This document shows, in pieces, positions 5,261-64,000 of a stretch of 64,000 nt of DNA. How positions within the stretch are numbered: position 1 is the first letter of the stretch; every line of letters begins with the position of its first letter. Made by a program: the position numbers and the translations under genes. Source of the stretch: an uncultured Planctomycetaceae bacterium (lineage in GTDB: Bacteria; Planctomycetota; Planctomycetia; Planctomycetales; Planctomycetaceae); contig CAWFGE010000013.1 of NCBI GenBank assembly GCA_963815195.1, positions 608,001-672,000 of the forward strand, in the 5' to 3' direction. The notes under the pieces are model-generated. The model worked only from the letters and a program-made list of their open reading frames with translations. It had not been told where the DNA came from and searched no databases.

Positions 5261-6125
5261 CTATTGCGCCTGGCGGGTCAGGTTGCGAAAGCGTTTGAGG
5301 AGGTCCTGCGTGATCGGGCCGGGCTTGCCGGTGCCGATGGGCCGGCCGTCCAGACTGACGACGGCGATCACCTCGGCCGCGGTGCCGGTGAGGAAGCATT
5401 CATCAGCCACGTAAATATCGTGGCGGGTGAAGGCGGTTTCCTCGAAAGGGATCTCCGCCTCGCGGGCCAGGCCGATCACGGCATTGCGGGTGATGCCCTC
5501 CAAAATCCCGGCTTCTGGCGGCGGCGTTTTGAGGACGCCCCGCTTCACAATGAACAGATTGTCGCCCGTGCATTCGGCGACTTCGCCTTTGTGGTTGAGC
5601 ATCAAGGCTTCCACGCTGCCGGCGTCGGTGCCTTCGATCTTGGCGAGAATGTTATTGAGATAATTCAGCGATTTGATCCGCGGGCTGAGCGCGGCCGGGT
5701 GATTGCGGATCGTGCTCGCCGTGATCAGCTTCATCCCGTTCTGGTAAATCTCTTCGGGGTAAAGCGTGATCGTATCGGCAATGATGATCACCTGCGGCTC
5801 GCTGGTCTTGCGGATGTCCAGCCCCAAACTGCCCGCGCCCCGCGTGACGACGAGCCGCACGTAGCCGTCGCCGATCCCGTTGGCCTTCACCGTGTCGTTG
5901 ACGGCGGCGATCATGTCGGCCTGGCTCGATGGGGATTTCCAGGCGGATCGCGCGGGCCGACTCGTAAAGCCGCTCGATGTGCTCGTTGAGCAAAAACACC
6001 ACGCCGCCGTAAACGCGAATGCCCTCGAACACGCCGTCGCCGTAGAGCAGACCGTGATCGTAAACGCTGATCTTGGCGTCGTCTTTGGGGATGAGTTTCC
6101 CGCTGATATAAACCTGGGCCGGCAT
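5261..6125 (-). CDS. ilvE: Branched-chain amino acid aminotransferase; frameshift near 5928
   Basis: [15 protein letters not shown] in ORF 5652-6125; [29 protein letters not shown] in ORF 5261-5914. Confidence 0.93.
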
Positions 6126-6147
6126 TTTAGTCTCGGTAAAGGTGTCT

Positions 6148-6351
6148 GGCGAGCGGGGGGCGTCAGCCCCCTGGTTTCGTCGAGAGTTAGTTCGTGTTGA
6201 TACCGCGGCGACCAGGCTCCATTGCGATCGTGTGCTGAAACTGATGTTGTCAGTGACCAGGGGGCTTACGCCCCCCGCTCGCCTGTGCGCTCGATGTTGT
6301 CAGTGACCAGAGGGCTGACGCGGGCACCGACCGAAGGTTGGTCCGCTCGCC
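6148..6351. repeat. Family A REP cluster: copies at 6148-6175 (+), 6256-6283 (-) and an interrupted copy at 6306-6351 (-)
   Basis: Consensus GGCGAGCGGGGGGCGTAAGCCCCCTGGT; the flank gatgttgtcagtgaccag is duplicated at 6243 and 6293. Confidence 0.9.
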
Positions 6352-7161
6352 TACGCGACCTTCAGCGTTTCGATCTGGCCTTCGCTGAGCCGCACAATGC
6401 GGTCGGCCTGGCGGGCAATGTGGTCGTCGTGGGTTACCATAATAATAGTGAGTCTGATCTTGCTCGTTCAAGCTCTTTAAGAGGCCCATGATTTCCTGCC
6501 CGGTGCCGGCGTCGAGGTTGCCCGTCGGCTCGTCCGCCAACAGCACCTGGGGCCTGGCGACCAGGGCCCGGGCGATCGCGGCCCGCTGCATTTCGCCGCC
6601 GGAAAGTTTCGACGGCTTATGCCGGACGCGGTGTTCCAGCCCGACTTTCTGGATGATCTCGCGGGCCTGGTTGCGAAGCTCTTTCCGCCGACGCCAATAG
6701 CCCAACAGGGAATGCCGAATCATCAGCGGAGCGACGACATTTTCTTCGAGGCTCAGTTCCGGCAGCAAATGATAGAACTGAAAGATGAACCCGAACACGC
6801 GGTTTCGCAGTTGGTCCCGCGTCTTGGCGGGCAGGTCGTCGATCCGCCGGCCGTCCAGAAAAATCTCGCCGACGTCGGGCGTGTCCAGAAGCCCCAGCAA
6901 ATGGAGCAACGTGCTCTTACCGGAACCCGACTGCCCCACGATCGACAGAAACTCCCCGCGCTTGGCGGCGATCTTTACGCCCTGCAGCACGCGGATTTTT
7001 TCCTGCCCGTAGCGGTAGGATTTTTCGAGCGCCACCGCTTCGACGTGCAAAGGCGGCTCGGCGGTTCCCGGTGGTTCGGTTTGATCTAATGCCAACGTTT
7101 CGTCCGTCCGATCCGTGGCCGCGTCCCGGGCCACACGATCCGCGATTCCAGCTTGTCCCAT
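6351..7161 (-). CDS. lolD: Lipoprotein-releasing (LolD-like) ABC transporter ATP-binding protein; frameshift near 6453
   Basis: [28 protein letters not shown]. The shifted frame restores LTIIMVTHD...[10 protein letters not shown] and ends at TAG 6351-6353. Confidence 0.85.
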
Positions 7162-9064: not shown

Positions 9065-9619
9065 TCAAGACCATTCACGAGTGAGAACCCAGCCTTCATC
9101 AACTTCCAACACCAACGGATACTCTTGATTCCGCACATATTCCACCGCGGCATAAATCGCTTTTTCATTTCGCAGCTTTCTTACCGAAGCCGATTCCGTC
9201 CACCAGGTTCCACTTTCCGGTTTCGACCAAGTTCGATTCAGCCGCCGGCTCGCATAACTTTTGAAGTCCCGCATAATATCCTCTGGTTCCGGGTCACCAT
9301 TCACTCCGACAACCAGATGCACATGGTTTCGCATGATGGCGAATGCCAGGAGCTTCCAACCGCGGTATTGGGCCGTCTCTAGGAATTGCTCTGCCATCGC
9401 TTTTGCTTGGTCTTCGACGAGGTAGATGGGTTTCGATTTCAGTTGGGAATTGGAATACGTTTTGAGTTCTCGAATGTCTTGGAAATAAGGTGTTTGAGGA
9501 CGATTCTCGATGCGGTGTGTTCCTGTTTCTTCGTCGAGGATGCGGCCGACAAAACCACGCTCATCACCGGGACGCCACGTCCCATACGTCGTCCAAGTGA
9601 TGAGCCAATATCGGTCCAT
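9065..9619 (-). CDS. REP-associated tyrosine transposase (RAYT / TnpA-REP; IS200-like HUH Y1 family)
   Basis: YWLITWTTYGTW, HUH motif MRNHVHLVV, FKSYASRRL, WWTES, catalytic Tyr motif EYVRNQ; no TnpB; flanked by REP hairpins. Confidence 0.88.
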   Translation of the reverse strand: MDRYWLITWTTYGTWRPGDERGFVGRILDEETGTHRIENRPQTPYFQDIRELKTYSNSQLKSKPIYLVEDQAKAMAEQFLETAQYRGWKLLAFAIMRNHVHLVVGVNGDPEPEDIMRDFKSYASRRLNRTWSKPESGTWWTESASVRKLRNEKAIYAAVEYVRNQEYPLVLEVDEGWVLTREWS

Positions 9620-9769
9620 TAACAAATCCAGGCGAGCGGGGGGCGTAAGCCCCCTGGTTTATTCTGAATGGTCAAAAGAGATTTAGATTTGGATTTTGAT
9701 TGTGCTTCCTGGCGACTGATCTTCAAGTGGAACAGCTTTGCTTATTGCACGTGACCAATTGATGTATTG

Positions 9770-22113: not shown

Positions 22114-22190
22114 ACGGGAACTCGCTGGCGTCCGGTTCTCGGGTGAACCGGGGCGGACCACCCTGCGGGCGGTGCCCCTCCTGTGGCTAA
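22114..22190. repeat. Family G REP doublet carrying the 23-bp mini-element (22155-22177)
   Basis: ...gcgtccggttc...gaaccggggc[ggaccaccctgcgggcggtgccc]ctcctgtggctaa; homologous to 42440-42585. Confidence 0.65.
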
Positions 22191-22558
22191 TGAACGCGAA
22201 ATTGCCGGCGGCAGTGGGCGGCCATTTCCTCGCCGGGGACCGGTTCCTCCAGGAAGGTCACGGCTCCCAGTTCGCGAATGGGCCATTCTAACTTTCGATA
22301 GGAAGGCGTTGCCACCACGAGGACCGCCTGGCCCGGCGTGCGGGACATCAGGCGTTCCAAAACCTCCAAGCACTCCGCGGGGTTTGCTTCCACGTCCATG
22401 AGGACCACGCCGTTTCCGGTCCGCGCGAGGCGCGATTCAATAACCCGCGGCCGGCCGCATCCCCGAACGCGGACTTCCTCGCCCGCAAATTGGCGTTCCA
22501 ACTCGGGAACCCAACGCGGCCGGCGCTCGAAGACAAAAATCGTTGGCGTCAGCATCAC
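22187..22558 (-). CDS. Degenerate single-domain receiver (CheY-like) protein
   Basis: (beta/alpha)5 pattern IFVFE...VVLMDV...VLVVAT...ELGAVTFLEEP; acidic pocket and conserved Lys are degenerate. Confidence 0.55.
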   Translation of the reverse strand: MMLTPTIFVFERRPRWVPELERQFAGEEVRVRGCGRPRVIESRLARTGNGVVLMDVEANPAECLEVLERLMSRTPGQAVLVVATPSYRKLEWPIRELGAVTFLEEPVPGEEMAAHCRRQFRVH

Positions 22559-42439: not shown

Positions 42440-42585
42440 AGCCGGAACGCGTTAGTGTCCGGTTCTTCCCAAGAACCGGGGCGGACCACCCTGCGGGCGG
42501 TGCCACCCTGCGGGCGGTGCCCCCCTGCGGGCGGTGCCCCCCTGCGGGCGGTGCCCCCCTGCGGGCGGTGCCCCCCTGCGGCTAA
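42440..42585. repeat. Family G REP doublet whose right arm contains a 17-bp tandem array (about 5.6 copies, 42486-42581)
   Basis: gccggaacgcgttagtgtccggttc...gaaccggggcgga(cc[a/c]ccctgcgggcggtg)x5 cccccctgcggctaa. Confidence 0.85.
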
Positions 42586-42623
42586 TAAATCGGACAATTA
42601 TTGATCGAGCGATCCTAAGCCCT

Positions 42624-44699: not shown

Positions 44700-44766
44700 G
44701 AGCCGCGCACGAAGTAAGCGGTATTGCGATGAATTGTTAAAGAACCGCTGACTTCGTGCGCGGCTC
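44700..44766. repeat. Family B REP doublet
   Basis: gagccgcgcacgaagtaagcggt-21 nt-accgctgacttcgtgcgcggctc. Confidence 0.85.
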
Positions 44767-63252: not shown

Positions 63253-63385
63253 GAGCCGCGCACGAAGTAAGCGGTCTTGAAATCGTCAAAACCGCTTACT
63301 TCGTGCGCGGCTCAAAAAATCAGAAAACCGCTTACTTCGTGCGCGGCTCAAAAAATCAGAAAACCGCTTACTTCGTGCGCGGCTC
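63253..63385. repeat. Family B REP with the right arm tandemly triplicated (36-bp period)
   Basis: gagccgcgcacgaagtaagcggt, then accgcttacttcgtgcgcggctc at 63291, 63327 and 63363 with identical linkers. Confidence 0.9.
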
Positions 63386-63390
63386 AAAAA

Positions 63391-64000
63391 TCAGTCGCCG
63401 AGTTTGCCGAGTTTGCCGAACTTGAGGGTGGTGATCCACACGAACGGCTGGCCGAGTTCGTCGATCTTCAAATCGTGCGACAAGCGGTTCGGATTGGTGA
63501 CGCCGCGGAGAAGCAGGCTCCAGGAGGTTTTGCGGGGCGGATAGTTCACCCGCGTTTTGACGAGGTCGATCCCGTTGGCTTCGATGCGGTAATGATCGTA
63601 GCGGATCGGGATTTTCGTTTTGGCCGAGATCGCGGTGAGCACATCGACGATGGGCAGATTGTCGAGATCGACAGGCACGAACTCAAACAGGCTGGGGGCG
63701 GTTTGCTGCCGGCTGTTTCTCAGCTGCCAACCTACGGGCCAGACCTCGGTGGTCTTTTGCAGCGGGACGACGGAGATTTCCAATTTGCCGGCTGGCGTGC
63801 GGACGGGACGGAAGCCCAAGCCGTATTCGTTGAGCAGCATCGCCAACGCGGTGCCGCGGGAAAACCCCTCGAGCGATTGCGGGAACGGGCCGCGGTTGGG
63901 AAACTCCGACTTGAGCCAATCGCTCGCGTCCTGGGTCATGCGGACCGGGTAGTTGGCGGGGATGTCCAGGCGGTCGATGGCTTTTTCCAACGACTGGTCT
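63391..64000 (-). CDS. Hypothetical protein, C-terminal part (5' end outside the window)
   Basis: Open frame to the window edge, codon usage like neighbouring genes; no recognisable motif. Confidence 0.65.
   Translation of the reverse strand, partial: DQSLEKAIDRLDIPANYPVRMTQDASDWLKSEFPNRGPFPQSLEGFSRGTALAMLLNEYGLGFRPVRTPAGKLEISVVPLQKTTEVWPVGWQLRNSRQQTAPSLFEFVPVDLDNLPIVDVLTAISAKTKIPIRYDHYRIEANGIDLVKTRVNYPPRKTSWSLLLRGVTNPNRLSHDLKIDELGQPFVWITTLKFGKLGKLGD

Follow-up and report, generated by a model that had tools for sequence, protein, structure and literature searches.

A 22-nt hairpin element with fixed ends was found in planctomycete DNA, where it stands in place of four target bases, and three copies of it lie in the window, the 64,000-nt stretch of an uncultured Planctomycetaceae genome that was analysed here. 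From the comparison of filled and empty sites the element is very probably mobile. The best explanation, to which we give about an even chance of being right, is that of a very small non-autonomous mobile element which would move as single-stranded DNA by means of a putative HUH-type enzyme and would spread further along with its host repeats.

Element copies and host repeats in the window

An initial annotation of the window had described a mini-hairpin at 6322–6344 in a REP of family A with homologs in REPs of family G. The first copy (GGGCACCGACCGAAGGTTGGTCC, 6322–6344, + strand) and its homolog (GGGCACCGCCCGCAGGGTGGTCC, 22155–22177, – strand) were both recovered exactly in the window sequence, and the A-T/C-G swap and loop difference between them are as stated. 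The copy placed at 42483 was present at 42483–42505 (– strand), but its first base is T, which leaves one mismatch, and it is the last unit of a 17-nt array.

With boundaries set from empty alleles, the first copy was reduced to a 22-nt core of the GACC-GAA-GGTT variant (6322..6343, + strand) between a C at 6321 and a C at 6344. A 50-nt stretch is duplicated in tandem here (repeat spacing 50). Its second copy holds the host, a filled family A REP arm (6306..6351, + strand); its first copy, an empty family A arm with the middle CCCCC (6256..6283, + strand), is the local empty allele, and an opposing empty family A arm (6148..6175, – strand) belongs to the same REP cluster. The second core, of the GCCC-GCA-GGGT variant (22156..22177, – strand), replaces the loop of a filled family G REP arm (22146..22191, – strand). 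The third copy lies in a family G arm (42474..42586, – strand) carrying five tandem 17-nt units that match the element's first 17 bases (42489..42573, – strand). This array probably arose by slippage between copies of an 8-nt repeat, CCGCAGGG, common to the host arm and the element; seven such arrays occur in the source genome. The opposing, divergent G-type arm (42440..42464, + strand) is without the element.

Searching the window with the element pattern at two mismatches or fewer gave five matches against 0.90 ± 1.03 expected, and none of 100 shuffles reached five; the match at 22402 looks like a chance occurrence and that at 42500 belongs to the array. Trained on 22 selected variants, two of them the window copies themselves, a covariance model recovered three strong copies only (6322, 22156 and 42483). 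Rfam analysis of window positions 5900–6800 returned a sole match at E 0.43, outside the element, and no curated family at the locus. For the sites at 6322 and 42483, the orthologous spacers in a sister genome (G001) and a relative (G002) lacked the host REP.

Anatomy and predicted fold

The unit consists of a 22-nt core, GGGCACC-N4-GNA-N4'-GGTC, which in most cases lies between a C and a G (among 88 metagenome contexts, base –1 was C in 72 and the last base was G in 61). These two flanking bases are mostly those of the host, and in some hosts an A or T has been turned into C or G. Cores of 24 nt with 5-bp stems, e.g. GCCGC/GCGGT, also exist. Constant features are the ends, GGGCACC and GGTC, and a G-N-A loop, the closing pair of which is nearly always C-G; when the ends alone were fixed, the GNA loop was present in 72 of 84 matches in the source genome (G000), with all four middle bases represented. 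The arms form an imperfect inverted repeat, and the inner stem varies with compensation (GACC/GGTT, GCCC/GGGT, ATGC/GCAT, GTGC/GCAT, CTGC/GCAG, ACGC/GCGT, GAGC/GCTT and ATCC/GGAT). In a stem pairing test 97% of positions were paired (0 of 500 shuffles), a result biased by the variants having been hand-picked as paired.

The element is predicted to fold into seven pairs, a bulged C and one more pair, and the forward strand folds better than the reverse; because the G-T pairs form there only, the GGGCACC strand would be the folded one. Folding z-scores of 25-mers were weak as DNA (–0.88 and –0.45) and stronger as RNA (–2.31 and –1.84), where G-U pairs contribute, and the computed energies alone slightly favour the RNA fold over DNA. 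The d(C-GNA-G) DNA mini-hairpin is unusually stable, and the covarying inner stem together with the GNA loop points to a single-stranded DNA hairpin, the form in which the element probably acts.

A variant with a G-C closing pair, GACG-GAA-CGTT, was observed at least five times in genome G510. Many other repeat families with C-GNA-G tips are present in G000, the largest having 83 copies.

Census in the source genome

The pattern GGGCACCG-N9-TGGTCC had 52 exact matches in G000 and none when reversed; for the ends-only pattern this reversed control underestimates chance, as many of the matches are unstructured. A relaxed census gave 88 complete copies, of which 45 lie in family A REPs, 31 in family G REPs and 12 elsewhere. 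Two of these 12 are in decayed A hosts; the other ten are in tRNA arrays (two sites), in a tandem repeat of an IS21-like gene that has empty neighbours, in protein genes (two), in another palindromic repeat (two copies) and elsewhere (two sites; gene names at non-REP sites are a reading of translations). An additional copy with one extra base interrupts a tRNA-Ala gene. In G000, 76 of 88 copies are in the A and G families. Ortholog-confirmed swaps outside REPs also occur, and the initial observation that the element keeps to REPs, which holds within the window, does not extend to the tRNA, IS, intron and chromosomal genes found elsewhere.

Both REP families are bimodal. Family A has a 5-nt middle in 160 of 212 REPs and the 23-mer in 27, and family G has a 5-nt middle in 117 of 155 and the 23-mer in 15, plus tandem forms; the estimate of about 5 nt replaced was therefore right in the 23-nt frame. 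The empty family G loop had been predicted as TAACG and is most commonly CGCTA (TAGCG on the + strand). The GACC stem was found in 40 of the 45 family A copies and the GCCC stem in all 31 family G copies. Both host subtypes include filled copies, and these show several different loop bases of the host, so that they do not belong to one clonal REP lineage. To call families A and G unrelated was an overstatement: they are laid out alike, and a second RAYT in G000, similar in type, has a flanking G-like REP. The element is on the foot-bearing strand in family G and on the opposite strand in family A, and at different positions, the foot strand being taken from the RAYT-flanking REPs. In a strand-bias count the filled A pattern caught nine copies, and G000 has no usable GC skew.

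A 17-nt middle, found in 15 of 212 family A REPs, arises where 12 nt of the arm are duplicated in tandem, and is a second common variant. The further palindromic repeat that hosts the element (G000:C19:13293, G000:C16:151205 and L031) has one copy between rplA-like and rplJ-like genes and one within an SMC-like ORF, these names again being read from translations. Three tRNA arrays were noted in G000 (C8:349600-352900, C12:573200-575450 and C5:30370-31950), two of which have copies interrupting tRNA-like genes.

Empty and filled sites

Sixty filled loci of G001, taken from the listed ones among its 127 exact copies, were compared with G000. The host REP was retained at the orthologous G000 site in ten cases, eight of them empty and two filled; 27 loci had no flanking orthologue in G000, 22 had no host repeat and one was spurious. 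Orthologous G000 spacers were without the host repeat altogether in 22 of 33 cases. Empty alleles of the host REPs do therefore exist, also at orthologous sites, and few target bases are replaced, in keeping with the minimal non-autonomous element that had been suggested.

Exact swaps of 24 bases for 6 were established against orthologues in a 353-aa gene (VTLTRGK-PDRPPDGAR-GSIPNF in G000, filled; VTVTRGK-SGG-GSVPNF in G001, empty), in a 108-aa gene where the element is present in G000 and G001 and the site is empty in the relative G003, and at the tRNA-Ala site, where four relatives have six bases instead of the element. The two chromosomal protein genes each gain six amino acids by this swap. 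In six G001 copies of an IS66 transposase the element lies in frame and the span measures 391 bases against 373 in homologues (+18), and a group II intron RT reads HD-GPTFGRCP-M when filled and HD-VL-M when empty.

The 406 distinct filled flanks were grouped into 183 context clusters. Among the 54 contexts with any empty match, the modal gap, including both flanking bases, was 6 in 29, 5 in 10, 7 in 9 and another value in 6, gaps of 5 and 7 being partly homopolymer slips or single weak matches. A modal gap of 6 means that the 22-nt core replaces four bases (24 for 6 with flanks), for a net gain of 18. A minority of sites have three bases replaced and form a real +19 class: the RT genes at L152, L193, L207 and L213 change frame at the element, whereas the RT genes at L192 and L202 gain six residues. 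The replaced hexamers lean to C-C-N-C-T-C, with G at 21 of 116 middle bases versus 32% in the flanks. Different stem variants were found at one site in 15 of 43 multi-member contexts, which suggests repeated targeting.

Target duplication was absent from REP families A and G and from the ortholog-confirmed swaps, as the initial annotation had reported. No footprints of precise excision were found in families A and G or in the IS21 repeat, where zero-gap matches were spurious, and the orthologous empty site for L458 gave no alignment. Pairs of filled and empty orthologues give no direction, and reversion to the empty state by conversion could explain some of them; the four lost target bases can be restored only from a template.

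Targets

The element is not REP-specific. It was found in both orientations in tRNA genes (11 of 87 sites), IS and intron genes and ordinary chromosomal genes, and its targets comprise many unrelated repeat families, IS66, IS21, IS91-like and IS701 genes, group II introns and the element itself (self-nesting at L197, L245, L307 and loci of the G440 set). Targets were more structured than the local background, with 30 of 87 in the lowest decile of a set that is dominated by repeats. Hot loci were observed, with three copies in one RT gene and at least four copies of three types in one tRNA array.

Exchange of a hairpin tip as a general rule was considered and rejected on weak flank complementarity. 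A search for a plasmid homologue of the IS66 piece found none. The inserted IS66 copies at L113–L116, L118 and L123 of G001 have two different upstream halves and look mosaic or partly replaced. At L199, L223 and L257 the element lies inside a sibling with an ATGC/GCAT-type stem. A planctomycete repeat with GGGGACAG-type arms (L020, L026, L107, L187, L210 and similar) hosts the element at no fewer than four positions, in some cases with two copies, and its central GNA-hairpin module may itself be an older small insert. The element is found just upstream of small HARE-HTH genes at L102, L106 and L267, in two distinct contexts. Two alphaproteobacterial records, L053 and L085, have one insertion site in common, at the end of an apparent gene.

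Distribution among genomes

None of 400 further genomes sampled from the phylum had the strict pattern. The relaxed pattern occurred in 24 of 400 genomes belonging to the class, a single one of them rich (63 copies); controls gave 0–1, and some of the single matches are due to chance. Searches of contigs returned at least 76 loci in genome contigs, at least 124 in metagenome contigs and six in viral contigs, while a looser viral search gave 69 matches, most with unpaired stems. Strict copies numbered 13–70 in nine of 30 genomes reached via these loci, and 157 relaxed copies were counted in G440. Most carriers are Planctomycetota by record title. Seven loci, with one or two copies each, are titled Gemmatimonadota, Acidobacteriota or Alphaproteobacteria, for which binning error is possible. 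All carriers seen appear to be metagenome-derived.

Candidate enzymes and proposed mechanism

A RAYT-like Y1 HUH gene (PF01797) is located in the window at 9065..9625 (– strand), flanked by empty family A REPs, and is the cognate of this host repeat. Six Y1 genes are present in G000, and no copy of the element lies closer than about 1.5 kb to any of them. The window RAYT had homologues in 5 of 12 element-rich genomes and in 8 of 23 element-poor ones; for a Y1 gene of any kind the counts were 12 of 12 and 18 of 23. Because these genomes are incomplete and related to each other the distribution is weak evidence, and it does not single out the window RAYT. No element-like hairpin was detected near the six RT genes of G000. 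Pfam analysis of 218 ORFs beside metagenome copies identified targets only (IS66, IS21, IS91-like, IS701 and group II RT) and no shared neighbour gene.

In the proposed mechanism, the core would fold into a hairpin of single-stranded DNA that has a bulged C and, at its 5' end, a G-rich foot. A trans-acting enzyme, most likely of the HUH (Y1) type, would release it by cutting at C|G at either end and join it into transiently single-stranded, often structured DNA. The target would be cut twice, some 4 nt apart, at C|CNCT|C-like sites, with loss of the small piece between. To our knowledge, target is not lost on insertion in known HUH transposition, and for this reason the two-cut step lacks a citable precedent; a HUH-type enzyme as catalyst is tentatively put forward, at slightly less than an even chance. 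As in TnpA-REP, for which cut sites are described as chosen by pairing of the 5' foot and stem irregularities as being read (PMC8266576), the G-rich foot would direct the cutting. Inside a repeat (REP, MITE, IS, intron or tRNA array) the core would be copied along with its host, and further spread to empty copies of the host repeat could proceed by short-tract conversion, which would give each G000 REP family mainly one stem variant; the RAYT may help in this later spread among REP copies. With a net gain of 18, many coding insertions would persist as six extra amino acids.

Alternative explanations were weighed against this single-stranded DNA reading. An RNA-mediated route, in which a hairpin transcript is reverse-transcribed or recombined into a nicked target and an offset second cut deletes about four bases in a TPRT-like manner, would fit the forward strand's good RNA fold with G-U pairs (z-scores –2.31 and –1.84), the six RT genes of G000 and the target-site deletions typical of some TPRT elements, and Elhai et al. 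reportedly proposed an RNA route for the SDRs of Nostocaceae. It is nonetheless unlikely, since the loop is fixed as G-N-A, the signature of a DNA mini-hairpin and not of an RNA tetraloop, the RT genes have no element-like hairpin nearby, insertions in tRNA and protein genes are in both orientations and the 6322 locus has no Rfam match. Capture by the host with no dedicated enzyme, through nuclease-resistant GNA fold-back oligonucleotides being taken up at single-stranded nicks by topoisomerase, primase or ligase, would account for a weak target consensus in very many contexts and for the failure to find a co-occurring mobile gene among neighbour ORFs or between rich and poor genomes. A specific protein is suggested instead by the fixed ends and the conserved bulge, by a deletion of nearly constant length and by the occurrence of different stems at one and the same site, and the patchy proliferation (none of the 400 phylum genomes under the strict pattern; 24 of 400 in the class under the relaxed one, a single genome being rich) also makes such capture improbable.

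The mechanism first suggested for the element, exploitation of the cutting and religation of REP hairpins by a REP-cognate RAYT, draws on the 76 of 88 G000 copies in REP families A and G and on the window RAYT with its flanking A REPs, and a RAYT could still drive secondary spread among REP copies. As the primary route it is about as improbable as host capture: many targets are not REPs, the strands are opposite and the positions different in families A and G, window RAYT homologues are not concentrated in element-rich genomes (5 of 12 rich, 8 of 23 poor), and the sister REP family around the second RAYT (199 matches) holds none of the 88 copies. That the element is the footprint or the fused ends of a larger IS which deleted four bases on arrival is very unlikely, in spite of its imperfect inverted-repeat arms and its many copies inside IS genes. 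Half-sites in G000, with flanks inspected by eye, were degraded copies, units of arrays, members of another REP family or what looked like chance matches, and none was seen to mark a larger element; the inner stem covaries as a unit and is kept, with the GNA loop, by structure, and the IS genes are targets for which empty homologues exist. A sequencing, adapter or assembly artefact can be practically dismissed. The metagenomic origin that all carriers seem to have and the probable indel errors in two window genes would speak for it, but stems covary, filled sites are shared between species, the records come from many unrelated projects, and contigs of an independent run end on filled REPs at 6312 and 22178.

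Comparison with known systems

The element appears by analogy to work like the SDRs of Nostocaceae. As reportedly described by Elhai et al., SDRs are gene-less hairpins of about 21–27 nt with compensatory changes, which are inserted in repeats and genes, nest within themselves and move by an unknown mechanism. The element is likewise dispersed and multi-copy (core 22 nt, 24 nt with flanks; 88 copies in G000, 157 in G440), keeps its structure by compensatory change, is present or absent at homologous sites, coding sequence included, and nests within its own copies. It differs in phylum and sequence, and its ends had no matches in 100 kb of a Nostoc plasmid. In this plasmid sequence, from Nostoc punctiforme, two copies of a 21-nt insert with C-GTA-G hairpins split HIP1 without target loss, thus sharing the tip of the element but not its geometry. 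One report describes a precise insertion of SDR5 in HIP1, between bases 3 and 4 (PMC4390886), a clean insertion that contrasts with the replacement of four bases at a loose consensus in varied sites. Another report found no SDR-like repeats in cyanobacteria that are rich in HIP1 but belong to families other than Nostocaceae (PMC5861425).

Like the REPs and REPINs associated with RAYTs, as presented in four sources, the element is a short hairpin, imperfect and bulged, with a foot at its 5' end; the same sources give class 3 Y1 proteins as mainly planctomycete and call REP dissemination poorly understood (PMC8266576, PMC6006769, PMC3116915, PMC3733652). The element is similarly found in REP-rich genomes with Y1 HUH genes. 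It lacks the GTAG, CGTC or CnGA foot, its 5' end being (C)GGGC, and whereas a cognate RAYT is flanked by its repeat, the element flanks none of the six G000 Y1 loci; REPINs are extragenic inverted doublets, and the element is single and lies inside other repeats, tRNA genes and protein genes. Rickettsia palindromic elements and intragenic REPs are palindromic inserts that persist in frame, as the element does, but RPE-1 is described as longer, and a fixed 4-base replacement is not among the features given there (PMC3733652). IS200/IS605 elements excise precisely and insert without target loss, while the element costs four target bases, and no excision footprints of it were found in families A and G or the IS21 repeat. 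Unlike MITEs derived from DDE elements, it has no target-site duplication, and no larger element is found at half-sites. IS1397 and other REP-targeting IS are reported to insert inside REP hairpins, like the element. These IS are kilobase-sized and encode a transposase; the element has 22 nt and is not restricted to REPs. No description of a 22-nt planctomycete element was found in a search of mainly open-access literature.

For work on how bacterial repeats of about 20 bases move, the element offers fixed ends, a covarying stem, an exchange of 22 bases in for four out, a large number of independent junctions, and sister genomes that either carry or lack it. It is conceivable, though we would sooner expect otherwise, that it represents a separate class of minimal selfish DNA, in which a 22-nt single-stranded DNA hairpin would be exchanged for a 4-nt piece of target by an undescribed enzyme, a swap and not an insertion, tuned to +18 to colonise genes, mobile elements and itself, with the Nostoc SDRs as the sister case. 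If so, the hundreds of precise junctions would be a handle for finding the enzyme, and an enzyme that swaps a short single-stranded hairpin for four bases would be new DNA-editing chemistry. The element would rank among the smallest mobile DNAs known; it repeatedly gives rise to 6-residue protein insertions and broken tRNA genes, and it parasitises other mobile elements.

Other features of the window

An ABC ATPase ORF (6250-7161) has a frame shift near its end, and a class IV aminotransferase gene (5261-6125) is split over two overlapping ORFs; each is probably due to a single-base assembly error. Another REP-like unit is present as three tandem 36-nt copies at 63288-63395, with a fourth copy at 44741.
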